Source: Proteobacteria bacterium UBA6156
GTDB taxonomy: Bacteria; Pseudomonadota; Alphaproteobacteria; UBA2136; UBA6156
NCBI GenBank assembly: GCA_002422365.1
Contig: DIUO01000015.1
Coordinates: 9,607 to 73,606 of the forward strand
Reading direction: 5' to 3'
DNA: 64,000 bases
A program made the translations under genes and the position numbers. The notes under the pieces were generated by a model, which ran no database searches, was not told where the DNA came from, and saw nothing but the letters and a program-made list of their open reading frames with translations. Positions 955 to 60,568 of the stretch are shown here, piece after piece; within the stretch, counting starts at the first letter, position 1, and each line of letters starts with the position of its first letter.

Positions 955-3210
955 TCAACTCCAGCCATAGATCTTCTCTACCCGCAGCATCACCTTCAGG
1001 GCGGAGAGGTGTTGGATGAGCTTGTTCAGGTGCTCTTTACCCTTAATCTCAATTTCGCAGCGGATGCTGGTGCTGTCGGCCGTACGGTTCTCGGTCGCAA
1101 TTTCGATAATATTGGCATCGGCGTTGGCGATGGTGCTGGTGATGGTGGCCAGGGCGCCGGGGTCGGTTTTGACATGAAAGCGAAGGCGGCACACGAACTG
1201 CCGCAAATCGCCCTGTTCGGCCTGCTTGCTCCAGCGCACGGGCAGCCAGCGGTCGGGCTGGTCGGCAAATTGCTCCAGGTTTTTGCAGGTGCGCATATGA
1301 ATGTTAATGCCTTTGCCCGTGGCGATAATCCCCACGATATCTTCGCCCGGTAAGGGGCTACAGCACTTGGCAAAGTGAACCGACATACCGGTGGTAATGC
1401 CTTCCAGCCCCACGGCTTCGTCGACCACCTTGCCCACCTGCTCTTCCGCCTTGCGCCTTGCCATGCGCTCGGCGGCTTTCTCGGCGGCCTTGTCGGCAGC
1501 TTTGGCGGGGGTCATCGGCTGGGCGAGATCCGGGGCCATCACTTCCATAATCTGGCGGGGGAATAAGCGCCCCTGCCCCAGGGCGGCGTAGGCGTCTTCC
1601 ACGCTTTCCACCTGCTGCACCGGCAGCTTGGGCACCACCTTGGCCAATTCTTTTTCGCTCCAGCTCCAGCCATCGCGCCGGGCGGCTTTTTCTAGAATTT
1701 CGCGCCCGATGCGCACCTGCTCCACCCGCTCCTGCTGGCGCAAAAAGCGGTTGATGGCCGAGCGCGCGCGCGAGCTCACCACAAACTCGCGCCAACCAGG
1801 GTTGGGCTGCTGGTGCGGGCTGGTTACAATTTCCACCATGTCGCCGTTTTCCAGCACGCGGCGCAGGGGCACCACACTGCCGTTCACCTTGGCGGAGACA
1901 GTTTTATTACCTAAGTTGCTGTGCACCGCATAGGCAAAATCCAGCGGGGTGGCACCGCGCGGCAGCTGGATGACATCGCCCTTGGGCGTAAAACAAAACA
2001 CGTTGTCACTGAACAATTCCAGCTTGGCGTTTTCGTAAAATTCGGCCGGGTCTTCCACGCCCTGTAACTGTTCCACCAGGCTTTTCAGCCAGCGGTAGGG
2101 GCTGCTGCGGGCGTCCTTCGGCGGGGCCATTTGCCCTGCGGCCAGCTGGGTTTCTTCGGCTTTCACGTCGGTACCCTGCCCCGGTTTATACAGCCAGTGG
2201 GCGGCTACGCCGTTTTCGGCCACGTCGTGCATTTCGCGCGTGCGTATCTGCACCTCCATGCGGTTGCCGAACGGCCCCACCACACTGGTGTGCAGGCTTT
2301 GGTAACCGTTGGGTTTGGGGGCGGATATATAATCCTTAAACCGCCCCGGTATGGCCTTAAAACGGTCGTGCATCATGCCCAGCACTTCGTAGCATTCGCG
2401 CTTGGTGTCGGTGACAATGCGGTAGGCGACAATGTCGGTCAGCTGGTCGAAGGCCAGGCTTTTGCGCACCATCTTCTGGTAAATGCTGTAGACGGCTTTT
2501 TCTCGGCCGCTCACTTCGGCCTTTAGGTTGGCGCGGGTCAGTTCTTCTTTCAGCACGGCGGTGACGCGGCCTACCAGGTCGTCTTGCTCGCGCCATTCGC
2601 CCATGCGGCGGCTTATGGCGGCGTATTCGTCGGGCTCCAGTATCTGAAAGCTCATATCCTCCAGCTCGGCCTTAATGGCGTGCAGGCCAATGCGGTCGGC
2701 CAACTGGGCGTAAATATCCATGGTTTCGCGTGCAATGCGGCGCTTCTTCTGCTCGTTGCTGAAGGCCCCCAGCGTGCGCATGTTGTGCAGGCGGTCGGCC
2801 AGCTTGATCAGCAGTACCCGAATGTCCTTGCTCATCGCCAGCAGCAACTTGCGGAAGTTCTCGGCTTGCTCCACCGCCTTGTCTTCAAACGATATTTTCG
2901 AAAGTTTGGTGACCCCTTCGGTCAGCTCGGCAACTTCCGGCCCAAACAGGCTGCGAATCTCGTCATAGGTGCTTAATGTATCTTCCAACGTATCGTGCAG
3001 CAACCCCACGGCAATACTGGCATCGTCCAGCTGCAGGTCGGCCAGTATGCCCGCCACCGCCAAGGGGTGCACAAGGTACGGCTGGCCGCTGGCGCGCTTC
3101 TGGTTGCCGTGAGCCTTCATGCTGTACACATAGGCGCGGTTAATCAGGCCCACGTCGGCCTTCGGGTTATAGGCCCGCACCTTTTCTATCAGCTCGTATT
3201 GGCGAATCAT
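955..3210 (-). CDS. spoT: bifunctional (p)ppGpp synthetase/hydrolase (RelA/SpoT family)
   Basis: HD hydrolase motif (HPLAVAGILADL...LLHDTLEDT), followed by RelA/SpoT synthetase, TGS and ACT regions. The ORF opens at 3246, but MIRQYELIEKV at 3210 matches the usual N-terminus. Confidence 0.93.
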   Translation of the reverse strand: MIRQYELIEKVRAYNPKADVGLINRAYVYSMKAHGNQKRASGQPYLVHPLAVAGILADLQLDDASIAVGLLHDTLEDTLSTYDEIRSLFGPEVAELTEGVTKLSKISFEDKAVEQAENFRKLLLAMSKDIRVLLIKLADRLHNMRTLGAFSNEQKKRRIARETMDIYAQLADRIGLHAIKAELEDMSFQILEPDEYAAISRRMGEWREQDDLVGRVTAVLKEELTRANLKAEVSGREKAVYSIYQKMVRKSLAFDQLTDIVAYRIVTDTKRECYEVLGMMHDRFKAIPGRFKDYISAPKPNGYQSLHTSVVGPFGNRMEVQIRTREMHDVAENGVAAHWLYKPGQGTDVKAEETQLAAGQMAPPKDARSSPYRWLKSLVEQLQGVEDPAEFYENAKLELFSDNVFCFTPKGDVIQLPRGATPLDFAYAVHSNLGNKTVSAKVNGSVVPLRRVLENGDMVEIVTSPHQQPNPGWREFVVSSRARSAINRFLRQQERVEQVRIGREILEKAARRDGWSWSEKELAKVVPKLPVQQVESVEDAYAALGQGRLFPRQIMEVMAPDLAQPMTPAKAADKAAEKAAERMARRKAEEQVGKVVDEAVGLEGITTGMSVHFAKCCSPLPGEDIVGIIATGKGINIHMRTCKNLEQFADQPDRWLPVRWSKQAEQGDLRQFVCRLRFHVKTDPGALATITSTIANADANIIEIATENRTADSTSIRCEIEIKGKEHLNKLIQHLSALKVMLRVEKIYGWS

Positions 3211-3292
3211 ATGTTCCAGTGTGGCATTGCAAGCGCCGAAAAACAACTGCCCCGCTTACATAAGCCCACCCCCTGTAACCGAAAAGAAAGGG

Positions 3293-3324
3293 AAAAAAGG
3301 CGGCCCGACCGAAGTCGGGCCGCC
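3293..3324 (-). terminator. Rho-independent terminator downstream of the 3352-3843 gene
   Basis: 11-bp stem ggcggcccgac/gtcgggccgcc with a 4-nt loop, followed by a T-run on the minus strand. Confidence 0.7.
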
Positions 3325-3351
3325 AAAGCGCGGTGCAGCAGGTGCGCGGGT

Positions 3352-3843
3352 TCAGTTGCCAGCGCTGCTGAGGGATAGGCGAGGGTTTCCGTCCCCCCTT
3401 CCTCCATAGAGGATGACATACTTTCCCTGGCTGAGCCGGACGCAGCCCACGCCGATCTCGCATTCGCTGAATTCGATCGGCGGGCCTACCGCCCGGCCCT
3501 GCTCGTCGAGCTGGAAGAGCAAGGGAACGAGACTCCCCTGACCCGTCAGGTTCAGCTCTGCAGCGTTGTCAACGAGAATGGTCAAGGTATAATAGACCGT
3601 TTCGTCCGTGCATGTCAGAGGTGAAGAGATATAGCCAAGCACCGACATAGGGATGAGCCGCATGTTCCATTCCAGCGGCAAGCAGCCCATAACCGGCGCG
3701 GAAACTTGCTGCCTTTTCTTGAAGTCAGGCGGCAGACTCTCGTAAGCCTTGATCGCTTCAATATGACGAAACTCTAAAGCTGTCGAGGCATTGGCAGGCA
3801 CTGCGAGAACGGCCAGAAAGGCCGCAAAGAACAAACGGAACAT
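3352..3843 (-). CDS. secreted hypothetical protein (signal peptide, 163 aa)
   Basis: N-terminus MFRLFFAAFLAVLAVPANA looks like a Sec signal. It has several Cys, I recognise no family, and it is followed by its own terminator. Confidence 0.6.
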   Translation of the reverse strand: MFRLFFAAFLAVLAVPANASTALEFRHIEAIKAYESLPPDFKKRQQVSAPVMGCLPLEWNMRLIPMSVLGYISSPLTCTDETVYYTLTILVDNAAELNLTGQGSLVPLLFQLDEQGRAVGPPIEFSECEIGVGCVRLSQGKYVILYGGRGDGNPRLSLSSAGN

Positions 3844-3927
3844 TTCATGGTTCTCCGTGAATCGTACCCCACCTTACCACAAACCTACTAAATAACAAGT
3901 ACGTCATCTGCCTCCATAAGTATTGCC

Positions 3928-3959
3928 AAAAGGGCCCAACCTACTGGTCGGGCCCTTTT
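3928..3959 (-). terminator. Rho-independent terminator downstream of the 3984-4403 gene
   Basis: Inverted repeat aaaagggccc ... gggccctttt, with a T-run on both strands. Confidence 0.65.
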
Positions 3960-3983
3960 CTCTGGCATACTATGCTGTGCTTA

Positions 3984-4403
3984 TTATCCGCCCGCAACTT
4001 TTTCAGGTCCCGGGAATCCCTTTGAGCGGCTGATGCAGATCCGCACGTCGCCGGGAGTTTCGAACTGAAAGTTATAGAAACCCGGTTCCCATATCTTGTC
4101 CATCACCACATCCTCCCTGTTCGGGTAATCTCTGAAGTTGGGAACTTGGGACGGGCCGCCCCAATCGATTGGCCCGTCCCACTTGAAGAAGATTGGGTCA
4201 GGAACCTCCTTCTGGATGTAAAGGAATGTGTTCGGGATGAAAGTCTCGACCGTATAGACGAATTCGGCGTTGACGTGATTTTCCCAGCAGCTTTCCTGGG
4301 GGTCTTCGAATTCGACTCCGACGACGTAATGGCCCTCCGCGGCCCAGACGACGCCCAAAAGCGCCAGCACAGTCATAAGTGATGCTGCAAAAACGTGTCG
4401 CAT
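3984..4403 (-). CDS. secreted hypothetical protein (signal peptide, about 139 aa)
   Basis: The ORF opens at 4445, but [21 protein letters not shown] (start at 4403) is a plausible signal peptide. I recognise no family. Confidence 0.55.
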
Positions 4404-4572
4404 GTTTCGCTCTTTCTGGGCCGCGCCCAATAGAGTTGAATTCACGCAAACACCTTACACCATATCCATCCTTTCGGCTATCCCTTCTTATTCCTTACCT
4501 TTTCAATCTTTTCTTTCGCATCCCGCAAAAATCCTCTTCCGCTACTTTGATTTATGTGCAACAAATAGCCCC

Positions 4573-7524
4573 ATGCCGAAATACACGCCCGCCGACAGCA
4601 TTACCCCGACCAGCCACCTGATCGTAAAAGGTGCGCGGGAACATAACCTGAAGAACGTGAGCCTGACGCTGCCGAAGCGCACGCTGAGCGTGATTACGGG
4701 GGTGAGCGGCAGCGGCAAAAGCAGCTTGGCGTTCGATACCATTTATGCCGAAGGTCAGCGCCGCTATGTGGAAAGCCTGAGCGCCTACGCCCGGCAGTTT
4801 TTGGAGCTGAACAACAAGCCGGACGTTGACCGGATTGACGGCCTGGCCCCAGCGATTGCTATAGAGCAGAAAACCACCAGCAAAAACCCGCGCAGCACGG
4901 TGGGTACCATTACCGAGATTTACGACTACCTGCGGCTATTGTACGCCAACGCGGGCACCGCGCACTGCCCCAACCACCCGGATATTGAAATTACCGCGCA
5001 GACGATTCAGCAAATGGTAGACCACGTGCTGGCCTGGCCCACCGGCACCAAACTGATGGTGATGGCGCCTGTGATACGCGGCCGCAAGGGCGAGTATATT
5101 AAGGAGCGCCAGCACTGGCAGGCGATGGGCTACACCCGCGCCGAAATTGACGGCGAACTGCTGGATTTGGCCGACAATGCCAAGCTGGTGAAGAACGAAA
5201 AGCACGATATTGCGCTGGTTATCGACCGGCTGGTGCTGAAAAGCGGCGACGAGAATGCGCCACTGGCTACCCGTTTGGCCGACAGCCTGGCCACGGCACT
5301 GAAGCTGGCGGAAGGGCTGGCGGAAGTGGTGCAAATGGATGTGCCGGGAGAGGCCGGGCGTAAATTGTTCAGTGAAAAACACAGTTGCCCTGTGTGCGGC
5401 CACGCCACCCAAATGGAGCCGCGCCTGTTTAGTTTTAACAGCCCTTTTGGGGCATGCCAGACGTGCGATGGTCTGGGCGAAGTGATCTTTTTCAGCCCGG
5501 ATTTGGTGGTGCCGGACGAAGACCTTACTATTAACCAGGGGTCCATTCATCCTTGGCGCGAAAAGGCCGGACGTGAAGGCTTTCAGCTCGGTAAAACCGG
5601 CAATTATTACATTAAGGCGCTGGCGCGGCACTATGGCTTTAGCCCGGATACCCCCTGGAAAAAGCTGCCCAGCACGGTGAGAGATATGCTGCTGTATGGG
5701 AGTGGTACAGAGAAAATTGAGTTTAAATTTGAGGGGGGGAAATCGACGTTTTCGACTAAAAAAGCATTCGATGGCGTGCTGGATATTCTTAAACGGCGGT
5801 GGGAGGGAAGCACGAACCCGTATTCCCGCGAAGACCTGAACCGTTACCGCGCGGCCAAACCTTGCGAGGCCTGCGGCGGTGCGCGGCTGAACCCCTCGGC
5901 GTTGGCCGTAACCGTGGGCGGTAAAAATGTGCATGATTATACCCGCATGGCGATTAACACCGCGCTGGCGTTTACCGAGCACTTGCAAAGCAGCTTAAGC
6001 GGTGCGGCCGGGCAGATTGCCACGCCGATTTTGCGAGAAATAAATGCGCGGTTAGGGTTTTTGAACCATGTGGGCTTGAATTATTTGTCTCTCGACCGCA
6101 CGGCGGGAACGCTGAGCGGGGGGGAGGCGCAGCGGATTCGGCTGGCTTCGCAAATTGGCAGCGGCCTGACCGGCGTGCTTTATGTGCTGGATGAACCGAG
6201 CATTGGCCTGCACCAGCGCGACAACACGCGCCTGCTGGAAACCCTGACCAAACTGCGCGACCTGGACAACACCGTGCTGGTGGTGGAGCACGACGAAGAC
6301 GCCATACGCATGGCCGATTATGTGGTGGATATGGGCCCGCTGGCGGGTGTGCTTGGCGGAGAAGTGGTGGCCGCAGGCACCGTGGATGACCTGATTGCCG
6401 AGCCCCGCAGTATTACCGGGCAATTTTTAAGCGGCAAGCGCTGTATTGCCGTGCCCGCCACGCGCCGCCCAACCGACCCTGCCCGGCAGATTGCCGTGCA
6501 TGACGCCCAAGGCAACAATTTGCGCCATGTTACGGCGGCTTTTCCGGTGGGCGTGCTGACGTGTGTCACGGGTGTTTCCGGCAGCGGAAAATCGACTTTA
6601 GTGATGGACACGCTGCACCATGCGCTGGCGGCCCGCCTGAATGGCAGCAAGGAGCAGCCGGCTAAACATAGCAAAATCAAGGGTTTGGAACACATTGATA
6701 AGCTGGTGAACATTGATCAATCGCCCATTGGCCGCACGCCGCGCAGCAACCCGGCCACTTATACGGGCATTTATGGCCCGATACGCGATTGGTATGCCGC
6801 GTTGCCGGAAAGCAAGGCGCGCGGCTACGGCCCGGGGCGCTTCAGCTTTAACGTGAAAGGTGGCCGCTGCGAGGCGTGTGAAGGCGACGGCGTGATTAAA
6901 GTGGAAATGCACTTTTTGCCGGATGTGTATGTGCCCTGCGAAGTGTGCCGGGGGAAGCGCTTTAACCGCGAGACGCTGGAGGTGCTGTTTAAGGGGAAAT
7001 CGATCGCCGACGTGCTGGATATGACGGTTGCCGATGCGCACAGCTTTTTCTCCGGTGTGCCGCGCCTGGCCAAACAGCTGAAGACGCTTGAAGATGTGGG
7101 ACTTGGTTACATCAAGCTGGGGCAGAACGCCACCACCCTTTCCGGCGGGGAAGCCCAGCGCGTGAAGCTGGCGAAGGAGCTGACGAAAATTGCCACCGGC
7201 CGCACGTTGTATATTTTGGATGAACCAACGACAGGGCTGCACTTTGCGGACATTGACCAGCTGCTGAAAGTGCTGCACCGGCTAGTGGATGCGGGTAACA
7301 CCATGGTGATTATTGAGCATAACCTGGATGTGATTAAAACCGCCGACTGGGTTATCGACATCGGCCCGGAAGGCGGCAGCGGCGGCGGACAACTGATTGC
7401 CGAAGGCACGCCGGAGGATGTGGTGAACGTCAAAAGCAGCTTTACGGGTCAGTATCTAGCACCGCTGCTGAAGGCGGCCCCTGCCCCGCAGAGTACCAAA
7501 CCGAAAAAGAAGAAGGCCGCTTAA
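4573..7524 (+). CDS. uvrA: excinuclease ABC subunit A
   Basis: Two ABC ATPase modules ([14 protein letters not shown] and [11 protein letters not shown]; LSGGEAQR twice) plus the UvrA zinc modules (CPVCG...CQTCDG; CEACEGDG...CEVCRG). The true start is MPKYTPAD at 4573. The ORF-track extension from 4402 is spurious. Confidence 0.97.
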
Positions 7525-8771: not shown

Positions 8772-9743
8772 TTAACGTTTTTTAGGGGGCTTTTGTTCGG
8801 TTTTTTCCGGCTTAGGGGGGGCAGCTTCGGCGGCGGCCATTTTTTTGTACCATTCCTCCAGCGCCAGTAGGGCGGAGCTGCTGACGAAAATGCTGGAGTA
8901 GGTGCCCAGTGCCACGCCGATGATGAGGATGCGGGCGAACTCGTGCACCGCCTCGCCGCCCCACAGGAACAGGCACCAGAGGACGAGGAAGACCGAGCCA
9001 CCTGTCATGATGGTGCGGCCGAGGGTTTGGTTGACGGAGAGGTTGATGACCTCGGACAGCGGGCGGTTGGGATATTTGCGGCGGTTGTCGCGCACGCGGT
9101 CAAAGATCACGATGGTTTCGTTCAGAGAATAGCCGATGAGGGTGAGGATGGCGGCCAGCACGGTGAGCGTGACCTCGGTTTTAAGAATGGCGGCGATGCC
9201 GATGGTGAGGATGACGTCGTGCGAGAGGGCGAGGATGGCGCCGAGGCCGTAGCGGAACTCGAACCGCGCCCAGACATAGATGAGGATGGCGAGGATGCTG
9301 ACGAGCATTGCCATGAGGCCTTTCATGCGCAGTTCTTCTCCGACCTGCGGGCCGACAAATTCGACACGGCGGAGTTCGGCCCCGCCTGCAGCTTGGCTGA
9401 GGCCTTGCATGATGCTGACTTCGGCGTCTCCGCTTTGGGTGGCGGGGTTGTTGCCCGGCAGGCGCACCAGGTAGGTATCGGCTGCGCCGTATTGCTGAAT
9501 GATGGAACCGGGGAAACCGGCTTCTTCGGTTACGGTGCGGACTTCGGCAACGCTGAGCGGGCGGGCGAGTTGGGCTTCTACCATTTTGCCGCCGACGAAG
9601 TCGATGCCGTAATTGAGCCCCTGCACACCCAGCAGAACGAAGGTGAGGAGCACCATGATGGCGCTGCTCCAGAGCCAGAAGCTGCGCAGGCGCATGAAGT
9701 TGAAGTGGGGGACTTTATCGAACGGGCGGATGGGGAAACGCAT
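8772..9743 (-). CDS. secF: protein translocase subunit SecF
   Basis: Typical SecF sequence (FMRLR..., LNYGIDFVGG, six TM segments). It lies directly downstream of secD. Confidence 0.93.
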   Translation of the reverse strand: MRFPIRPFDKVPHFNFMRLRSFWLWSSAIMVLLTFVLLGVQGLNYGIDFVGGKMVEAQLARPLSVAEVRTVTEEAGFPGSIIQQYGAADTYLVRLPGNNPATQSGDAEVSIMQGLSQAAGGAELRRVEFVGPQVGEELRMKGLMAMLVSILAILIYVWARFEFRYGLGAILALSHDVILTIGIAAILKTEVTLTVLAAILTLIGYSLNETIVIFDRVRDNRRKYPNRPLSEVINLSVNQTLGRTIMTGGSVFLVLWCLFLWGGEAVHEFARILIIGVALGTYSSIFVSSSALLALEEWYKKMAAAEAAPPKPEKTEQKPPKKR

Positions 9744-9753
9744 GGGGACCTGG

Positions 9754-9794
9754 TTTTTTCGTGTTTGGTGTTGAGTATTGAGTTAGGTGTTTGG
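9754..9794 (-). repeat. TG/CA-rich heptad spacer element (secD-secF intergenic)
   Basis: ttttttcgtgtttggtgttgagtattgagttaggtgtttgg. It shares the core TTTTCGTGTTTGGTGTT with 7 other loci and ends 10 nt upstream of the secF ATG. Confidence 0.7.
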
Positions 9795-13379: not shown

Positions 13380-13412
13380 CAGTGAACAGTGAACAGTAGA
13401 CAGTGAACAGGG
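13380..13412 (-). repeat. tandem heptads (CAGTGAA x4-5) upstream of icd
   Basis: cagtgaa cagtgaa cagtaga cagtgaa caggg. It lies between the stop of the 13418 gene and the icd start. Confidence 0.8.
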
Positions 13413-16758: not shown

Positions 16759-16991
16759 GGAGTTCTCCCTTGTTATGGCACGGGAGGGTAACATGGGGTT
16801 TTGTGCCTTGGTAGGGTTTTGACGGGGCGAGGCGGAAAAAAGTCAGGAGGCGTTGGGCGTTGGTTTGGTGGGGGTAGGTTGGGGGTTTTGAGTTAGGGGG
16901 ATGGTGCGATTATTTTCCAGATCCCGGGTCTGGGCGTGGGCCCGCGATTTGTTACCAAATCGCACCCCGCCGTAGCCCGGGAAACGGTGGA

Positions 16992-17621: not shown

Positions 17622-17656
17622 ATTTTCGTGTTTGGTGTTTAGTGTTTAGTGTTTGG
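17622..17656 (-). repeat. TG/CA-rich heptad spacer element (eno-gpmA intergenic)
   Basis: attttcgtgttt ggtgttt agtgttt agtgttt ggg. It fills the 48-nt eno-gpmA spacer. The mRNA strand reads (AAACACY)4. Confidence 0.8.
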
Positions 17657-24662: not shown

Positions 24663-25313
24663 TTACCGGCCGGGTTTGCCCATTTCTCGCTGCACATAGG
24701 CGGCGATGGTGGCGCCGAGTTCATCTTGCTGGTTGGTGAAGAAGTGGTCGGCACCGTTGATTTTGGCGGCGCTGATGGTGATGCCCTTTTGGCGGGTGGA
24801 TTTTTTCAGCATGTTTTCGGTGTCTTCGGCGGTAGTGATTTCGTCGTTGTTACCATAAATAACCAGGCCGGAAGTGGGGCAAGGGCTGAGGAAGGTGAAG
24901 TCGTACAGACCCGCTGGTGGGGCGACGGCGATAAAGCGCTTGAGGTCGGGGCGGCGCATGAGCATTTGCAGTGTTATCCAGCTGCCGAAGGAGAAGCCTG
25001 CGAGCCAGATTTCTGGCGCGTGGGGGTGGTTGGCGTGCAGCCAGTCGAGGGCGGCGGCAGCGTCGGAGAGTTCTCCCACACCGTTGTCGAACACGCCCTC
25101 GGAATTGCCGACACCGCGGAAGTTGAAGCGGAGGACGGAAAAGCCCATGCGCACGAAGGTTTCGAACAGTTTGTACGTTACCTTGTTGTTCATGGTGCCG
25201 CCGTGCAGCGGGTGCGGGTGGAGAATGACCACGATGGGCGTTTCGGGGTTCTTTTGGGCAAAATACTTGCCTTCCAGGCGGCCGGCGGGGCCTTGGAAGT
25301 TGACGTCGGGCAT
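24663..25313 (-). CDS. alpha/beta-fold hydrolase (COG2945-like)
   Basis: Nucleophile elbow GFSFGSW and a C-terminal GADHFF His motif. 216 aa. Confidence 0.8.
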   Translation of the reverse strand: MPDVNFQGPAGRLEGKYFAQKNPETPIVVILHPHPLHGGTMNNKVTYKLFETFVRMGFSVLRFNFRGVGNSEGVFDNGVGELSDAAAALDWLHANHPHAPEIWLAGFSFGSWITLQMLMRRPDLKRFIAVAPPAGLYDFTFLSPCPTSGLVIYGNNDEITTAEDTENMLKKSTRQKGITISAAKINGADHFFTNQQDELGATIAAYVQREMGKPGR

Positions 25314-25325
25314 GGGGCGGTGCCT

Positions 25326-25357
25326 TTGTGTTTAATTTTTAGTGTTTGGTGTTTGTG
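25326..25357 (-). repeat. TG/CA-rich heptad spacer element upstream of the hydrolase gene
   Basis: ttgtgtttaatttttagtgtttggtgtttgtg, 12 nt upstream of the ATG at 25313. Confidence 0.6.
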
Positions 25358-26055: not shown

Positions 26056-27168
26056 ATGGCGACGAAGGCCCCTGCCCGTGTGTATTTGGACTATGCCGCC
26101 AGTGCTCCGCTGCGGCCTGCGGCGCGTGCGCGGATGATGGAACTGCTGGACATTTTTGGCAACCCCAGCAGCCTGCACGCCGAAGGCCAAGCCGCACGCA
26201 TGGCGCTGGATGACAGCCGCCGCACGCTGGCCGGAGCGCTGGGTGTGCGGGCGGAGAGGATTGTGTTCACCAGCGGTGGGACGGAGGCAAATAACCTTGC
26301 TTTGCGGGGTGTTATGGCGGTTTCTTCTGGTAAAAGATTACTTGTATCTGGCATAGAGCACGACTGCGTGCGGGCGACCGGGAAAGCGCTGGGTGCGGAG
26401 GAGATTCCGGTTGATAAAGATGGGCTGGTGCGGTTGGACTGGCTGCGTGATGAGCTGGCCAAGGCCGATGTGGCCATGGTGAGTGTAATGCATGCCAACA
26501 ACGAAAACGGCGTGTTGCAACCCGTGGTGGAGATTGCGCGGATGTGCCGCGAGTTTGGGGTGGTGTGCCACAGCGATGCGGTGCAAACGGTTGGGCATAT
26601 ACCTGTGGATGTGGATAAGGTGGGGGCGGATTTGGTGAGTTTTTCGGCCCACAAATACGGTGGGCCGCGCGGAGTGGGTGTGCTTGTGCTGAAGCCGGAG
26701 CTGGAGATGGTGGCAACAATGACGGGTGGTGCGCAGGAGCGCAACCGCCGCGCGGGCACCGAAAACGTGGCCGCCATTGGCGGGGCCGCCGTAGCGCTGC
26801 AAGAGGCGATGTTGAACATGGAGACGGAACGCAGCCGGGCGCGGCAGTTTGGCGAGCAGGTGTGCGCCGCGGCGGAGGCCCTGGGACTGGACGTGGTGGG
26901 CAAGGCCAGCCCGTGCGTGGAGCATGTGGTGCAGGTGCTGACGCCCAAGCGCGGCGACGATGTGGTGATTGGTATGGATTTGAAAGGTGTGGCCATTAGC
27001 CAAGGCAGCGCCTGCGGCAGCGGCAAAGTGAAAGAAAGCCATGTGCTGCGGGCGATGGGGTATAGCCCCGATGAGGCCGGGCGGGCGGTGCGGTTGAGCT
27101 GGGGGTGGGCGACGACGGAGGCGGAGATTGCGGCTGGGGTGGCGGCTTTGGGGGCGGTGGTGAGTTAG
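26056..27168 (+). CDS. cysteine desulfurase (NifS/IscS class V aminotransferase)
   Basis: PLP lysine in SFSAHKYGGPRGVG, active-site loop SQGSACGSG, N-terminal YLDYAASAP. Confidence 0.9.
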   Translation: MATKAPARVYLDYAASAPLRPAARARMMELLDIFGNPSSLHAEGQAARMALDDSRRTLAGALGVRAERIVFTSGGTEANNLALRGVMAVSSGKRLLVSGIEHDCVRATGKALGAEEIPVDKDGLVRLDWLRDELAKADVAMVSVMHANNENGVLQPVVEIARMCREFGVVCHSDAVQTVGHIPVDVDKVGADLVSFSAHKYGGPRGVGVLVLKPELEMVATMTGGAQERNRRAGTENVAAIGGAAVALQEAMLNMETERSRARQFGEQVCAAAEALGLDVVGKASPCVEHVVQVLTPKRGDDVVIGMDLKGVAISQGSACGSGKVKESHVLRAMGYSPDEAGRAVRLSWGWATTEAEIAAGVAALGAVVS

Positions 27169-27206
27169 TGGTTTAGTGTTTTCGTGGTTAGTGTTTTAGT
27201 ATTTTT
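27166..27206. repeat. TG-rich heptad element, downstream of a plus-strand gene
   Basis: tagtggtttagtgttttcgtggttagtgttttagtattttt. It is the same family and the same strand as the other copies, but here it is 3-prime of the desulfurase gene. Confidence 0.6.
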
Positions 27207-29224: not shown

Positions 29225-29259
29225 TTAGAAGTTAGAGGTTAGAGGTTAGAAGTTAGACG
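29225..29259 (-). repeat. tandem heptads (TTAGARG x5) upstream of gltA
   Basis: ttagaag ttagagg ttagagg ttagaag ttagacg. It lies between the stop of the pilin-like gene (29306) and the gltA start (29135). Confidence 0.8.
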
Positions 29260-41319: not shown

Positions 41320-42669
41320 CTAGCTGGCTTTTTTGGCCTGCTTTTCGGTTTTTTCGGATTTGGCCGAGGCGCTGTCGGTATAGATTTTCAGCGGTTCGGC
41401 TTCTCCGCGCACGGTGTTGGCGTTGATGACCACTTCTTCCAGGCTCTTCTGGCTTGGCACGTCGAACATGGTGTCGAGCAGGATGTTTTCCATGATCGCG
41501 CGCAAGCCACGGGCGCCGGTTTTGCGCTTGATGGCTTGCTTGGCGATTTCGGTCAGGGCCTCTTGCGCGAAGGTGAGGCGCACGTTTTCCATATTAAAGA
41601 GCTGCTGGTATTGCTTGGTGAGGGCGTTCTTCGGCTCGGTGAGGATTTGCAGCAGGGCGGACTCGTCGAGGTCGTTCAGCATGGCCAGCACCGGCAGGCG
41701 GCCTACAAATTCGGGTATCAGGCCGAATTTGACGAGGTCTTCGGGTTCGGCCATCTGGAAGAGTTCGCCGACACCCCGGTTTTCTTCTCCGGCAACCTCG
41801 GCATTGAAGCCGATGCTGCGCTTTTTGAGGCGTTGGCCGATGACTTTATCGAGCCCCGCAAACGCGCCGCCGCAGATGAAGAGGATGTTGGAGGTGTCGA
41901 CTTGCAGGAACTCTTGCTGCGGGTGTTTGCGGCCGCCCTGAGGGGGCACGCTGGCCACGGTGCCTTCGATCAGCTTGAGCAGGGCTTGTTGCACGCCTTC
42001 GCCGGAGACATCGCGCGTGATGCTGGGGTTGTCGCCTTTGCGGGAGATTTTGTCGATTTCGTCAATATACACAATCCCGCGTTGGGCACGCTCGACGTTG
42101 TAGTCGGACGCTTGCAGCAATTTCAGAATGATGTTTTCGACGTCTTCTCCGACATAGCCAGCCTCGGTGAGGGTGGTGGCGTCGGACATGGTGAAGGGGA
42201 CGTCGAGAATACGGGCAAGTGTTTGAGCTAAAAGTGTTTTACCCGTGCCGGTGGGGCCGATGAGCAGGATGTTGGACTTGGCGATTTCGACCGGGGAATT
42301 GTTGCCGGCGGCCGCGGCGGCTGTTACGTGCTCCAACCGCTTGTAGTGGTTGTAAACGGCGACAGAGAGGATGCGCTTGGCGCGGCTTTGGCCGATGACG
42401 TAGTCGTCGAGGATGCCCATGATCTCGGACGGGGTTGGCAGCCCGTGAGCCCCCTGCCCGCCGCCTTGGGCCTTCAGTGCCTTGGCGGCTGTGGCGGGTT
42501 GGGCTTCTTCTTCGCGGATGATATCCATGCAGAGGCGTACGCATTCGTCGCAGATGAACACCGTGGGCCCGGCGATGAGTTTGCGAACCTCGTGCTGGCT
42601 TTTGCCGCAGAAGCTGCAGTAAAGGGTGCCGCCTGCGGTGGTGGAAGAGGAATCGGTTTTTTTGGCCAT
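41320..42669 (-). CDS. clpX: ATP-dependent Clp protease ATP-binding subunit ClpX
   Basis: Zinc-binding [29 protein letters not shown], Walker A GPTGTGKT, and an IGF-type ClpP-docking loop (here IGFNA). The true start is MAKKTD at 42669. Confidence 0.97.
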
Positions 42670-42780
42670 GGAAAACAGTTCGCTTTGTTGTGAATGCCGC
42701 AGTTTTGGGCATGGGCGGAGGTGTGTCAAGCAAATTGGCGGCAGGCGCGCGGAACGGTGCGGATGGGGGTGTGGCTAATG

Positions 42781-42822
42781 GGTGTTTTCGTGTTTAGTGT
42801 TATTGTGTTTAGTGTTTGGTGG
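42781..42822 (-). repeat. TG/CA-rich heptad spacer element (clpP-clpX intergenic)
   Basis: ggtgttttcgtgtttagtgttattgtgtttagtgtttggtgg, about 110 nt upstream of the clpX start. Confidence 0.7.
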
Positions 42823-42878: not shown

Positions 42879-43490
42879 TTAGGCGGCCTTTTTCTTTTTC
42901 GGTTCTTCCCGGTTGGTGAGGACGTGGTCGACCAGGCCGTATTTTTTGGCTTGTTCGGCGGTCATGAAGTTGTCGCGCTCGGTGTCCTTCGCGATAGTTT
43001 CCATTTTCTGGCCGGTGTGGTCAGCGAGAATCTGGTTGATCATCTCGCGCGTGCGCTTGATTTCGTCGGCCTGGATGAGGATATCCGACGCTTGGCCTTG
43101 GGCACCGCCCAGGGGTTGGTGGATCATCACCCGGCTGTTGGCCAGCGCATAGCGCTTGCCGGGGGCGCCGCCCGCCAGCAACAGCGCGCCCATGCTGGCT
43201 GCCTGCCCCACCACAATGGTGGATACGGGGCACTTGATGTATTGCATGGTGTCGTAAATGGCCATACCTGCCGTTACCACGCCGCCAGGGCTGTTGATGT
43301 AGAAGTTGATTTCGGCCTCGGGGTTTTCAGCCTCGAGAAACAGCAACTGCGCGACGATGAGGTTGGCGACGTTGTCTTCTACCTGCCCGGTGAGGAAGAG
43401 GACGCGCTCCTTCAGCAGGCGGCTGTAGATATCGAAGGAGCGTTCGCCGCGGGCGGTTTGCTCGATCACCATGGGGACGAGGAAGGACAT
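42879..43490 (-). CDS. clpP: ATP-dependent Clp protease proteolytic subunit ClpP
   Basis: Catalytic [11 protein letters not shown] (Ser) and [10 protein letters not shown] (His). It has an extra C-terminal EEPKKKKAA tail. Confidence 0.97.
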
Positions 43491-43503: not shown

Positions 43504-43532
43504 CTTAGTTTTTAGTGTTTGGTGTTGAGTAG
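43504..43532 (-). repeat. TG/CA-rich heptad spacer element upstream of clpP
   Basis: cttagtttttagtgtttggtgttgagtag, 13 nt upstream of the clpP ATG. Confidence 0.65.
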
Positions 43533-53141: not shown

Positions 53142-53921
53142 CTAGGAATAAAAGCGGTAACCGTTGCGGCCTGCTTTTTTGACGGCGTACATGGTTTCAT
53201 CTGCCGCTTGGAGCAGGGCTTCGACCGTGGTGCCGTCTGTTGGGGCCATGGTGATGCCGATGCTGGCGCCCAGCTTGATGCGGAGGTCGTTCAGCCAGAT
53301 GGGTTCGTTGATGAGGTCGATGATCTTTTTGGTGCGTTCTTCCACGTTCGCTTTGTCGGTGGCGCCGTAGAGCACGATGATGAATTCGTCTCCGCCCAGG
53401 CGGGCCACGGTGTCTTCGTCGCGCACGCAGGCTTTGAACAATTCGGCGACTTTTTTCAGCACGGCGTCGCCGGCTTCGTGGCCGTAGGTATCGTTCACGG
53501 GTTTAAACTTGTCGAGGTCGATATACAGCAGGGCCAGCGGTTGCTGGCGCTTGAAGGCGGTATCCAGCTTTTGCAGCACGCCACGGCGGTTGGCCAGGCC
53601 GGTCAGGGGGTCGGTATTGGCTTGCTGGGTGGCTTTGTCGGCCTTGGAAAGGCGGCCGATGGCGGCGGCAAGGTTGCCGAGTTCGTCGACGCGCTTGAGG
53701 TGCAGGCTGTCGGGGACGACGCCGCTTTCGATTTTCTCTACTGCGCGGCGAAGTTGGTCGATTGCGGCGGCATCTTGCCGCGAAAGCAGCGCCACAAACC
53801 CCAGCACCCCCACCAGCATAATGAACGTACCCAGCAACGGGCCAATGGCAAAGGTAAGACCGGCACCCACCAGCAGGCTGGCGGTGACAGGAATGATGTA
53901 GCGTTGCGAGAGAGTCTTCAT
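53142..53921 (-). CDS. membrane-anchored diguanylate cyclase (2 TM, HAMP-like linker, GGDEF)
   Basis: Intact GGDEF with an RxxD I-site (RDEDTVARLGGDEF), preceded by DPLTGLANRR. Confidence 0.9.
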   Translation of the reverse strand: MKTLSQRYIIPVTASLLVGAGLTFAIGPLLGTFIMLVGVLGFVALLSRQDAAAIDQLRRAVEKIESGVVPDSLHLKRVDELGNLAAAIGRLSKADKATQQANTDPLTGLANRRGVLQKLDTAFKRQQPLALLYIDLDKFKPVNDTYGHEAGDAVLKKVAELFKACVRDEDTVARLGGDEFIIVLYGATDKANVEERTKKIIDLINEPIWLNDLRIKLGASIGITMAPTDGTTVEALLQAADETMYAVKKAGRNGYRFYS

Positions 53922-53980
53922 GGCAGGCAGTGTTGGGGTTTTCGCAGGGTGTGTCTAGTGTTTTTGCAACCGCAGGCAGC

Positions 53981-56968: not shown

Positions 56969-57547
56969 CTAGCGTTTGGTGCGGCGGCGGTCGCGCAGGC
57001 CAAGGCCGCTGTGGGCGACCATGGGCACGCTGTGCGCGGTGATGGGTTTGCGGCCCTTGCGGCTGTGGAAGGCGGCGGCGATGGTGTAGATGTTGATGGC
57101 GGAATAGAACGCCTCTTGCGAGATGCCGACCAGTGAGCCGTGGGAGACATTGTAGGTTATCCAGCAGGCCGAAACCAGCAGCATGACCGCGCGCAATTGC
57201 ACGCCGCGCAGCTGGAACACCGCGTAGGTGGCCATGATGTTGGCCAGCACCGGCAAAGTACTTTGTGGGCCCAGGTAGGTGAAGTGCCCGCAGAGCATAC
57301 CCAGCACCATGAAGAAGGTCATCCACCACGTGCTTTGGGTTTTGTTGGCCACCCAGTAGCGCCCCGCCGCCACAAAGCAGATGGCCACGCCCACCCACGC
57401 GCCCAGCAGCGCATAGTGCGCCGCCATGAGCACGGAGGAGATGGCGAAGGCGGTGCGGAAGTTTCTATCCGCCGGATGCAAAAACCCGTAGATGCCGTAG
57501 GCGAAGCTGGCGGCGCCGAAAAGTTGGGACAATAAGTAAAGTGTCAT
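56969..57547 (-). CDS. YgjV-like inner membrane protein (192 aa)
   Basis: Five to six TM helices with internal duplication and a basic tail. The resemblance to the YgjV family is impressionistic. Confidence 0.45.
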   Translation of the reverse strand: MTLYLLSQLFGAASFAYGIYGFLHPADRNFRTAFAISSVLMAAHYALLGAWVGVAICFVAAGRYWVANKTQSTWWMTFFMVLGMLCGHFTYLGPQSTLPVLANIMATYAVFQLRGVQLRAVMLLVSACWITYNVSHGSLVGISQEAFYSAINIYTIAAAFHSRKGRKPITAHSVPMVAHSGLGLRDRRRTKR

Positions 57548-57566
57548 CGTGTTTGGTGTTTTGGTG
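57548..57566 (-). repeat. TG/CA-rich heptad spacer element (fills the cysS to membrane-protein spacer)
   Basis: cgtgtttggtgttttggtg. The entire 19-nt intergenic spacer consists of the motif. Confidence 0.65.
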
Positions 57567-58919
57567 TTAGGCGCGGCGCCAGGTTTGGCCGTTGGGGCCG
57601 TCTTCGACGATGATACCGTGTTCTTCTTTCAGGAGGTCGCGGAGGCGGTCGGATTCGGGGAAGTTTTTTTCAATACGAGCCTTTTTACGATCAAGTAATA
57701 ATTGAATTTCTTCAGGCGATTCTTCCATAGATTGGGCCCTCACAAGCAAACCTAAAAACTGCATCATTCTTACTTTTCCAATTTTATCTGGCCAAGATTC
57801 AAGAATGGCCATTGCTTCGGAGGTATTCAGATCGTCAGCCAATGCTTCAATAAATTCTTTCGGTAAAGGCACATTCAATAAATGATCTGGCATAATTTCT
57901 TCTGAAATACGTTGCCAACGATTTGCACGTTGTTGTGCGGCCTTCAAAGCCTCGTCGGAGTAGTCGACGGGTTTGCGGTAGTGGGTTTGGAGGAGCCAGA
58001 GGCGGATGGCTTCCGGGCTGTACTTTTGCAGGGCGTCTTTGATGGTGGTGAAGTTGCCGAGGCTTTTGGACATTTTGGTGCCGCCCACGGTGATGAAGCC
58101 GTTGTGCAGCCAGTAGTTGGCCATGGGCTGGCCAGCGGGGAGCAGGGCTTCACTCTGCGCGATTTCGCAGCAGTGGTGCGGGAACTGGAGGTCTTCCCCT
58201 CCCCCGTGGATGTCGAACGTGGGGCCGAGGTGCTGGCGCGACATGGCCGAGCATTCGATATGCCAGCCGGGGCGGCCAGGGGCGCTAAAGTGCTGCGCGC
58301 CGTAATCTTTCGGGTTGAACGCCTGCTCCATTTTGGTGGCGGATTTGGCGTTGGCTTTCCAGAGGACGAAGTCGTTGGGAGACTCCTTTTCGGTATCTTC
58401 GGCTACGCGGCTGCCGTGCTGCTGTTCATCCAGCTTGCGGCGGGCGAGTTGGCCGAAGCGCGGGAATTTTTGGGTGCGGTAGATGACGTCTCCCGATGGG
58501 GTGACGTAGGCGTAGCCTTTGGCGAGGAGTTCGTCGGTCATTTCCACCATGCTGCCGATGTGGGTGCTGACGCGGGGTTCTATATTGGGGCGCAGCACGT
58601 TGAGTGCATCCATGTCGGCATAGAACGACTGGATGTGATGTTCGGCCAGTGCGGTGGGTTCTTCGTTGCGTTCTGCGGCGCGCTTGATAATTTCGTCGGC
58701 GATATCGGTGAAGTTGCGGACGTAGGTGACGTGGTTTTCTCCGTAGATGTGGCGCAGCAGGCGGTAGAGGACATCGAACACCACATAGGCGCGGGCGTGG
58801 CCGATGTGGGAGTTGTCATACGGCGTCACTCCGCAGACGTAGAGGCCGACGTTGTTAGGGTCTATCGGCGTGAAGGTCTGTTTTTCTCGGGTGAGGGTGT
58901 TGGTGAGGCGGAATTGCAT
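57567..58919 (-). CDS. cysS: cysteinyl-tRNA synthetase
   Basis: HIGHARAY (HIGH) and KMSKSLGN (KMSKS) motifs. 450 aa. Confidence 0.96.
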
Positions 58920-59128: not shown

Positions 59129-60526
59129 TTACGAGCCGCGACAACAGGATTGGAGGCGGGTTTTCACTTCCTCCGGGCCCCAGATGGGGAGGAGGTTGGC
59201 GAGTTCCGGGCCGTGGTCTTGCCCCGTGAGGGCGCGGCGGAGGGGCATGAAAAGCTCCTTCCCCTTGCGGTTGGTGAGGGCTTTGAGTTCGGTGGTCCAG
59301 TCGGTATAGGTGCTGGGGCCGAAAGTGGCGGGTAGCGCGCTGAGCGCGGTTTGGAGGAAGGTTTGGTCTTCTGGGGTGAATGCTTGCGGGGTTGGGGCTT
59401 TGAGGATGGGTTCCAGCGCGCTGGGGATGTCCGCCAGGGTTTTGAGGCCCTCGCGTACCATCGGCCACAGGGTTTCCATCTGGCTGGAGGTTGCGTAGCT
59501 GGGCAGGAAGGGCATGGCGTAGGGCGCGATATCATCCCACACACTATGGTGCAGGTTGGTGGTGTTGGTGTGGGCGAGTTGGTCTTCGTCGAACCGCACG
59601 GGGGCTTTGCCGACGCGGGCAAAGTCGAAGTTCTGGGCAAGTTCTTCTAACGTGGCGTTGGCGTGCGGCATCTCGGCAAAGCCCAGGCTGGCAATGTAGC
59701 CGTTGAGGGCGGAGGGCAGGTAGCCTTGCTCGCGCAAGGTTTTAATGCTGAGGGCGCCGAAGCGCTTGGACATTTTGTGGCCTTCTTTATCGAGCATGAG
59801 CGCGACGTGGGCGAATTGGGGCGGGGTGGCGCCGAGAGCTTCGTAAATTTGCATCTGCACGGCGGCGTTGACGATGTGGTCTTCTCCGCGAATGACGTGG
59901 GTGATGCCCATGGCGAGGTCGTCGACTGCGCCCGCAAAGGTGAACAGTGGCACGCCGGAGCTGCGGACGATGACGGGGTCGCCGCCGATGTTTTCGGTTT
60001 TAAAGCGTTGCTCGCCACGGATGAGGTCGTTAAACACGATCTCGCCGTCGTTCATGCGGAAGCGGATGACGGGCTCGCGGCCTTCGGCGCGGTATTTGGC
60101 TTTTTGCTCTTCGGTGAGGTCGCGGTGGCGGTTGTCGTAGCGCGGGGGCTCGTTTTTGCTGGTTTGGATTTTGCGGAGGAGATCGAGTTCTTCCGGGCTG
60201 GTGAAGCATTCGTAAGCGCGGCCCATGGCGAGCAGTTTTTGCGCGGCGGCGGTGTAGTCGCCGCGTGTCGCCCGTTCCATGGTGCGGTAGGGGCCATAGT
60301 CTCCGCCTGCGTGGGGGCCTTCGGTGAAGGTGAAGCCCAGCCAGGCGAGGTCTTGGTAGAAGCCGTCTTCTGACCCGATTTTGTTGCGGTCGAAGTCGGT
60401 GTCTTCGATGCGCAGCACCAGGGTGCCTTGCTCTTTGAGCGCCAGCAAGACGTTGGGCAGGGCGGCACGCAGGTGGCCAACGTGCATGAGGCCGGTGGGG
60501 GATGGGGCGTAGCGGACGCGGAGCAT
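59129..60526 (-). CDS. gltX: glutamyl-tRNA synthetase
   Basis: MLRVRYAPSPTGLMHVGHLRAAL (HIGH-type) and HKMSKRFG (KMSKS-type). The ORF-track N-terminal extension to 60709 overlaps secA and is rejected. Confidence 0.95.
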   Translation of the reverse strand: MLRVRYAPSPTGLMHVGHLRAALPNVLLALKEQGTLVLRIEDTDFDRNKIGSEDGFYQDLAWLGFTFTEGPHAGGDYGPYRTMERATRGDYTAAAQKLLAMGRAYECFTSPEELDLLRKIQTSKNEPPRYDNRHRDLTEEQKAKYRAEGREPVIRFRMNDGEIVFNDLIRGEQRFKTENIGGDPVIVRSSGVPLFTFAGAVDDLAMGITHVIRGEDHIVNAAVQMQIYEALGATPPQFAHVALMLDKEGHKMSKRFGALSIKTLREQGYLPSALNGYIASLGFAEMPHANATLEELAQNFDFARVGKAPVRFDEDQLAHTNTTNLHHSVWDDIAPYAMPFLPSYATSSQMETLWPMVREGLKTLADIPSALEPILKAPTPQAFTPEDQTFLQTALSALPATFGPSTYTDWTTELKALTNRKGKELFMPLRRALTGQDHGPELANLLPIWGPEEVKTRLQSCCRGS

Positions 60527-60568
60527 GGTTTGAGTGTTTTCGTGTTTGGTGTTGAGTGTTTTGGTGCG
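60527..60568 (-). repeat. TG/CA-rich heptad spacer element (fills the secA-gltX spacer)
   Basis: ggtttgagtgttttcgtgtttggtgttgagtgttttggtgcg. It abuts the gltX ATG. Confidence 0.75.

Follow-up and report, generated by a model that had tools for sequence, protein, structure and literature searches.

Tandem arrays of the seven-nucleotide unit AAACACN, which lie along a 64,000-nucleotide stretch of DNA (hereafter the window) from the uncultured alphaproteobacterium UBA6156, represent a new, strand-polar form of a class of heptamer repeats already known from bacteria. We read them as a young, strand-polar DNA minisatellite that has been filtered by selection, the majority of its copies serving, or at least sufficing, as unstructured initiation regions independent of a Shine-Dalgarno (SD) sequence; to this reading as a whole we give an even chance. 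The window corresponds to positions 9,607 to 73,606 of contig DIUO01000015.1 (C1:9607-73606 in our contig numbering) of assembly GCA_002422365.1, a fragmented metagenome-assembled genome of 1.27 Mb, 47 contigs and 59.7% GC that is 87% complete (G000). Its GpmA protein finds its best identity, 66%, among the Hyphomicrobiales. Four congeners were compared with it (G001 to G004), of which G001 is a two-contig genome.

We use CA sense for the strand that reads (YAAACAC)n and TG sense for the strand that reads (GTGTTTR)n. Allowing at most one mismatch, the two-unit pattern picks out 75 arrays in the genome, and the three-unit pattern GTGTTTNGTGTTTNGTGTT gives 75 matches against 3 for its reversed control; the exact two-unit pattern would be expected, by our estimate from base composition, about 0.5 times as against the 75 found. 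In the messenger sense the unit is AAACAC followed by T, C, G or A, and each set has from 2 to some 7 such units. Of the 132 strong tandem repeats that TRF reports for this genome, 56 have period 7. A first-pass annotation of the window had listed eight loci sharing tandem RGTGTTT heptads, with the TG-rich strand always on the plus strand, and both statements hold at all eight (Table 1). Its list lacked a weak two-unit copy, and the stretch at 16849-16900 upstream of tolB, which it took for a degenerate relative, is a twofold duplication of GGCGTTG with runs of G and represents a separate heptad. A covariance-model scan of the window against Rfam brought 5 tRNAs to gathering scores, and the arrays matched no family.

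The position of the arrays relative to genes is far from random. Gene calls and starts came from our own simple codon-usage caller of open reading frames (ORFs), which is crude, a subset of its starts having been compared with homologues; position was also scored in a manner free of gene calls, by asking whether an ORF of 80 codons or more starts with ATG within 27 nt of the array end. Among the 40 arrays of at least 19 nt (the long arrays), 25 end 0-27 nt before such an ATG in CA sense, at a median distance of 9 nt, against 3 of the 40 in TG sense (Fisher p = 2.9e-7), and by this test no array is start-proximal in TG sense alone. In six long divergent intergenic regions, of 130-760 nt, the array always lies 2-28 nt from the CA-sense ATG. 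Coding DNA is depleted of arrays: only 7 of the 40 fall in ORFs, though some 81% of the genome is called coding. With 33 of 40 outside ORFs, the prospect that copies might be equally frequent inside genes can be set aside. Within the window, the first-pass description of arrays reaching to within 0-13 nt of an ATG that has no GGAG-type SD sequence is accurate for secF (whose leader holds an AGG patch only), gpmA, the membrane-protein gene, gltX, the hydrolase gene and clpP.

The 3' end of the 16S rRNA is canonical, with CCTCC (GGATCACCTCCTT). We searched for an SD core at -20 to -4 in 734 genes with reasonably constrained starts. On the C-rich strand 30% of genes have it, against a background of 3%, and on the G-rich strand 39%, against a background of 12%. 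Array-bearing leaders have one in 2 of 26 cases, as against 112 of 360 (31%) for the other C-strand genes (p = 0.013). Leader arrays average 29 nt in length with a G fraction of 0.11, and place a C/A-rich tract directly 5' of the start. Little structure is predicted in this region: the mean minimum free energy from -30 to +30 is -2.9 kcal/mol for array leaders, whereas the other genes of the C strand average about -8.4 and those of the G strand about -11 (p = 5e-8).

Comparison with orthologous spacers gives this depletion a direction. The eno-gpmA spacer of the congeners measures 20-25 nt, contains GAGGA (G001, G004) or AAGGA (G003) and has no array. Of eight orthologue pairs between this genome and G001, four or five have an SD sequence in G001 but lack it in G000; they include gpmA, the hydrolase gene (CGGAG in G001) and the genes at C46:11088 and C46:6007. 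At C4:15194, G001 has a TAA-ccc-ATG junction, and the array is inserted here at precisely that point; one of the eight pairs retains AGGGAG downstream of the array. Because the orthologous spacers are short and often carry an SD sequence, the arrays must be recent and have displaced it. Their youth is also indicated by the congeners at large, which share the gene order but not the arrays: TG arrays are absent from three of the four, and G002 has a few (11 matches versus 2 for the control).

Fifteen long arrays do not fit this pattern: 7 lie in frame within ORFs, 6 abut a stop codon or the end of a tRNA, and 2 lie elsewhere, the clpP/clpX copy among them. Those in frame encode loops rich in K, T, N, H and Q (in NuoG, NuoL, the PdhC linker and PheS) or short N-terminal tails, and alignment of PheS with solved PheS structures places a 13-residue insertion exactly at the array. 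Units ending in T, which would create a TAA, make up 2 of 22 units in the in-frame arrays versus 24 of 70 in leader arrays. The six that abut a gene stop or a tRNA end do so in TG sense, and TG-sense arrays, which carry TAG, supply stop codons; the window's copy at 27166, with no CA-sense gene downstream, belongs to this class. The TG-sense arrays at C26:43038 and C46:26741 come after a stop codon and are followed directly by a canonical intrinsic terminator. The arrays do not act as a module of stops in three frames, a possibility that we ruled out, as only 1 of 25 leader arrays has stops in all three.

Orientation obeys a rule of its own. In 72 of 73 unambiguous arrays, and in all 40 long ones, it is the locally G-rich strand that carries TG, and the same polarity recurs at all four loci of the sister species G002 (4/4). 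Isolated GTGTTT hexamers outside arrays lie on the G-rich strand in 79% of cases, as composition predicts, and differ in this from the arrays (p = 8e-5). AAACAC occurs within 40 nt upstream of 38 of 386 C-strand genes and of 2 of 348 G-strand genes. From this polarity, and from the restriction of AAACAC to the upstream regions of C-strand genes, we conclude that the DNA strand determines orientation; an association with leaders arises solely where a gene happens to be on the C/A-rich strand. The proposal of the first-pass annotation, a C/A-rich unstructured leader, therefore holds in that the arrays are start-proximal in mRNA sense, anti-correlated with SD sequences and nearly free of structure, but it is not the whole story, since orientation is set by the strand and a third of the long arrays are not leaders.

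A minisatellite filtered by selection would bring these observations together as follows. The arrays would originate in a process at the DNA level, such as slippage or template switching, and would survive in one orientation only relative to a very strong strand asymmetry of base composition, with the TG strand on the G/T-rich strand. Their distribution shows that copies persist where no gene is destroyed: copies within proteins hold the frame and avoid the T-units that make TAA, and TG-sense copies sit at stops or just after them. The largest class, about 60%, ends 0-27 nt ahead of the ATG of a gene on the C/A-rich strand and often makes up the whole intercistronic spacer. There the array has replaced the SD sequence and leaves a G-free, unstructured initiation region, so that translation of the roughly 25-40 genes led by arrays would have to start without one. 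Two routes appear likely, namely loading of the 30S subunit at a single-stranded CA-rich standby or S1 site and, within operons, re-initiation by ribosomes that terminate a few nucleotides upstream.

Several of our observations weigh against assigning the leader copies such a role. An SD core is missing from about 70% of all genes in this genome, and initiation without an SD sequence accordingly needs no arrays. The genes that bear arrays have no evident functional or expression theme, and the third of long arrays that are in frame, stop-abutting or in 3' untranslated regions (UTRs) are not leaders at all. Base composition alone accounts for part of the polarity, about 4:1. It is, moreover, odd for a translational element under selection that G-strand genes are almost never preceded by CA arrays.

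Such points lend themselves to a neutral or selfish expansion of simple sequence, in which placement at starts would reflect CA-rich seeds (A-rich sequence followed by CC before the ATG) together with tolerance of insertions, and no translational role would exist. In favour of this account, several unrelated heptad and octad families have expanded in this genome, skew-polar and mostly not tightly start-proximal; some arrays are read in frame within essential proteins and others lie in 3' UTRs; they are missing from congeners of the same gene order; and most genes do without an SD sequence in any case. We nevertheless think it unlikely. The arrays lie tight against the ATG even in intergenic regions of 130-760 nt, the SD sequence has been lost exactly where an array is present, and a single unit at about 75 loci is hard to obtain by slippage from local seeds. 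A scan of metagenomes bears on the same question. It recovered at least 120 contigs, of 31-72% GC, with four or more consecutive AAACAC cores (about 3.5 units); at a rough look, 17 of these contigs have an ATG-ORF within 40 nt of the array, and in 13 of the 17 it begins within 0-11 nt, so that AAACACN precedes starts in unrelated sequences as well. Fifteen short contigs of the Ga0307489 metagenome (within loci L161-L240) have a strongly C-rich CA strand and possibly derive from a relative with the same trait.

The strand asymmetry that the arrays follow is itself unusual. GC skew takes extreme values, with a median of |0.18| over 10-kb neighbourhoods and a maximum of 0.35. Contigs show it uniformly, whichever way the genes run; coding-sense GC3 skew is +0.21 for genes on the G-rich strand and -0.41 for those on the C-rich strand, two classes of similar size (407 versus 461 genes). 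The C-rich strand holds rpoBC, the ribosomal-protein genes, atpD, dnaA and 23 of 32 tRNAs, the G-rich strand the rRNA operon and ftsZ. A single-copy dif-like site, TTCGCATAATATATATTATGTTAAAT, is conserved at 26 of 26 positions in G000, G001 and G004, and in both G000 and G001 the skew has equal sign and size on its two sides. To the right of this site (C7:147320) the arrays at C7:150604 and C7:155234 retain their plus orientation. In G001 each contig shows one sign, over 1.02 Mb and 0.50 Mb, with graded magnitude, the exceptions being a block of about 25 kb of opposite skew (C2: ~10-35 kb) and skew-free islands of low GC. The pattern does not resemble the usual skew of a chromosome with two replichores. 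We attempted to equate the G-rich strand with the leading strand and failed, as dif lies within a region of uniform skew and the one switch in the window is probably neither origin nor terminus. That switch, from minus to plus at 3246-4402, lies between spoT/relA (955-3246) and uvrA (4402-7524). At about 3.2-4.4 kb it is syntenic with the edge of the ~25-kb opposite-skew block of G001, and no DnaA-box cluster or dif site was found there, so it probably marks an old inversion boundary. In contig C7, at about 84-132 kb, a block of some 48 kb has a GC content of 0.42-0.57 and near-zero skew, in a contig whose skew is otherwise +0.2 to +0.3; this presumably recently acquired block shows that the skew is a mutational signature acquired slowly.

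These data also bear on an alternative of the first-pass annotation, a strand-specific DNA motif oriented by replication. The strand-specific part stands, with orientation set by the strand in 72 of 73 arrays; orientation by replication is too specific, as the asymmetry fails to switch at dif. Polar DNA signals such as KOPS, the sequences that orient FtsK, and Chi are single 8-mers that are spread through genes, are conserved across species and flip at dif. A signal of this type, or one for replication or segregation oriented with replication, would share with our arrays the strongly strand-polar, G/T-rich oligomer, and near-perfect polarity both here and in G002 would be its natural outcome. 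We hold it to be very improbable all the same, since the arrays are tandem, nearly confined to gene boundaries and species-specific, number only about 75, are lacking in three of the four congeners and, like the skew, are not flipped across the conserved dif. To our knowledge, tandem 7-bp units are unlike the signals of FtsK or RecBCD.

One motif before some 25-40 unrelated genes might also be a shared site for a trans-acting factor, either an RNA-binding protein of the S1, Csp or Hfq type or a GU-rich RNA. Binding of S1, Csp or CsrA was suggested by MacGregor for TAACTGA repeats (PMC4679880), and the GU-rich small RNA GcvB targets CA-rich enhancers, according to the summary given in 10.1101/808485. 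In the RNA form of this idea, transcribed 3' copies of (GUGUUUR)n could pair with (YAAACAC)n leaders in the manner of GcvB, and the TG-sense arrays followed by terminators would be of the appropriate kind, as would the array at the hfq stop (C7:38027): as this array begins at the stop codon, the 3' region of hfq would carry (GUGUUUR)n complementary to the CA leaders. We consider a trans-acting regulator less likely than neutral expansion. Polarity and the in-frame and stop-abutting copies are explained more simply by insertion at the DNA level followed by selection, the arrays seem too young for a conserved regulon given their absence from three of the four congeners, and the would-be targets share no theme. 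Sites of the Hfq (ARN)n or Crc 'CA-motif' kind were dropped, on the inference that a 7-nt unit cannot hold a 3-nt phase.

A bolder variant would combine the strand with the RNA. The same strand stays G/T-rich on both sides of dif, and in a congener one strand does so for 1 Mb or more; a strand-specific DNA process tied to this non-replichore asymmetry might generate the arrays. Because the arrays are polar, the transcriptome would be split into C-strand genes with (YAAACAC)n leaders and G-strand genes with (GUGUUUR)n in their 3' UTRs, and leaders and 3'-UTR tracts together would form a GcvB-like antisense network that titrates the SD-less CA leaders. We regard this as distinctly improbable; were it true, the (GUGUUUR)n set would include the tract at the hfq stop and the two tracts followed by terminators.

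Short tandem units beside start codons also resemble the simple-sequence contingency loci of phase-variable genes, in which slippage alters copy number and thereby switches the downstream gene. The secD-secF array is base-for-base identical in 6 independent assemblies and the eno-gpmA array in 3, from different samples, which suggests for the two loci compared, in a population that may be clonal, that the arrays are not hypervariable. In addition, the genes concerned are housekeeping genes (gpmA, gltX, secF, clpP) and the imperfect units suppress slippage. With no length difference at either array, phase variation was provisionally dropped, and we find it scarcely credible.

The closest known counterparts are the direct repeats of the heptamer TAACTGA in marine Beggiatoaceae, some Cyanobacteria and Bacteroidetes (MacGregor 2015, PMC4679880), which form 169 sets of 2-6 units, most of them ending a few nucleotides before starts, with SD sequences in about 10% (PMC4679880). 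Both repeats are dispersed tandem sets of 7-nt units (169 there, about 75 here), mostly intergenic and 'forward', that end a few nucleotides before a start; in both, SD sequences are rare in the spacers concerned (about 10% there and 8% here) despite a normal anti-SD, some copies overlap upstream stops and a few lie inside ORFs at tolerant positions. In neither do the downstream genes share a functional theme, and a translational role has been proposed. The present unit differs, being A and C plus one variable base, and so does its host, an alphaproteobacterium with a small genome of 60% GC. Stops in three frames, always present in TAACTGA, are confined here to the single leader array noted above; the chromosome strand dictates orientation here, and the gene does not; this genome harbours several heptad families side by side, where BOGUAY has related heptamers only rarely; and displacement of the SD sequence is seen here by comparison of orthologues.

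For the heptamer repeats of cyanobacteria, the name STRR reportedly goes back to Mazel et al. in 1990. In Nostoc PCC 7120, repeats such as (TTCAAAA)3 and (GACYAAT)8 lie near start codons, and deletion constructs mainly affected promoter regulation (10.1101/2022.06.06.494920). As in heterocystous cyanobacteria, several distinct 7-nt families occur in one genome, and like the Nostoc repeats many copies lie within 30-100 nt of starts or promoters. Unit sequences and phylum differ, however, and the Nostoc repeats occur on either strand with an orientation relative to the gene, unlike the one absolute strand observed here. For our intercistronic copies a function as promoter elements was ruled out, as the arrays fill stop-to-start spacers of 19-65 nt.

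In a third precedent, CA-repeat tails strongly raise initiation in E. coli, with a maximum at 16-18 nt, and CA-rich single-stranded tracts are proven translation or standby enhancers there (Sterk, Romilly and Wagner 2018, PMC5934652). The leader arrays resemble them in being G-free, unstructured C/A tracts, 16-18 nt long or longer, immediately before the start, and standby tracts of this sort raise initiation independently of SD strength. By contrast, the tracts of E. coli and Salmonella consist of CA dinucleotides or are irregularly CA-rich, and they work in combination with an SD sequence, whereas ours are heptads and lack one.

Heptamers close to starts became known from giant sulfur bacteria in 2015, and from cyanobacteria before that. 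The arrays described here amount to a natural experiment, in that young repeats have taken the place of SD sites in housekeeping operons (eno-gpmA, secA-gltX, secD-secF, cysS), and their unit is a pure C/A tract; such tracts enhance initiation in E. coli, an effect whose cause is still described as puzzling. They bear on two questions, whether a G-free repeat can stand in for an SD sequence and whether the whole class is translational. Furthermore, their strict polarity and the in-frame insertions in PheS, NuoG and NuoL offer a handle on how such repeats arise.

Table 1. Heptad arrays of the window, further arrays of the genome and dif-like sites. Positions without a prefix are those of the window; others give genome, contig and position.
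Feature	Position	Strand or sense	Context
secD-secF array	9754..9794	(-), CA sense	within 65-nt spacer; ends 10 nt before secF ATG (9741-9743)
eno-gpmA array	17622..17656	(-), CA sense	most of 48-nt spacer; no SD sequence
Hydrolase array	25326..25357	(-), CA sense	12 nt 5' of alpha/beta-hydrolase ATG (gene 24663-25313); divergent intergenic region
Stop-abutting array	27166..27206	(+), TG sense	begins in TAG stop of NifS/IscS-like cysteine desulfurase gene (26056-27168, plus strand)
clpP/clpX array	42781..42822	(-), CA sense	between clpP terminator hairpins and TTGACA-type promoter-like site
clpP array	43504..43532	(-), CA sense	13 nt upstream of clpP ATG (43488-43490); weak GGA patch only
Weak copy AACACTAGACAC	53951..53962	(-)	two units; 29 nt upstream of ATG at 53921, just past terminator; marginal member
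cysS/membrane-protein array	57548..57566	(-), CA sense	whole 19-nt spacer; cysS stop 57567-57569, ATG 57545-57547 of 192-aa membrane-protein gene
secA-gltX array	60527..60568	(-), CA sense	nearly all of 43-nt spacer; secA stop 60570-60572, gltX ATG 60524-60526; no SD sequence
In-frame arrays in essential proteins PheS, NuoG, NuoL, PdhC linker	G000:C28:17234-17266, C39:33351-33376, C39:41953-41986, C15:19747-19772		
hfq array	G000:C7:38027-38066	TG sense	40 nt; begins directly at hfq stop (Pfam Hfq, 64.5 bits)
dif-like sites	G000:C7:147320-147345; G001:C1:226632; G004:C1:295256		

The clpP/clpX copy, which the first-pass annotation had counted as start-proximal, is not a leader copy: it comes after the clpP terminator hairpins, and some 115 nt still separate it from the true start of clpX, whose product begins MAKKTD. 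Two GC-rich hairpins follow clpP, and a promoter-like site, TTGACA-N17-AAAACT, precedes the clpX ATG by about 60 nt (window 42600-42780, minus strand). Given the hairpins and this site, clpX may own a promoter and not be co-transcribed with clpP.

The other expanded families of this genome include AACAGTG at 14 loci, AAGTTAG at 5, ACCAGGC/AACCAGG at 7 and AGGATATG at 3; all these heptad and octad families are polar with the skew and less tightly start-proximal than AAACACN. A heptad phenomenon common to the genus was ruled out by an 800-kb sample of G001, which contains 2 strong period-7 repeats versus the 56 of this genome. In the window, CAGTGAA is repeated 4.4 times at 13380-13412, about 40 nt upstream of icd, and TTAGAAG 4.7 times at 29225-29257, about 90 nt upstream of gltA.

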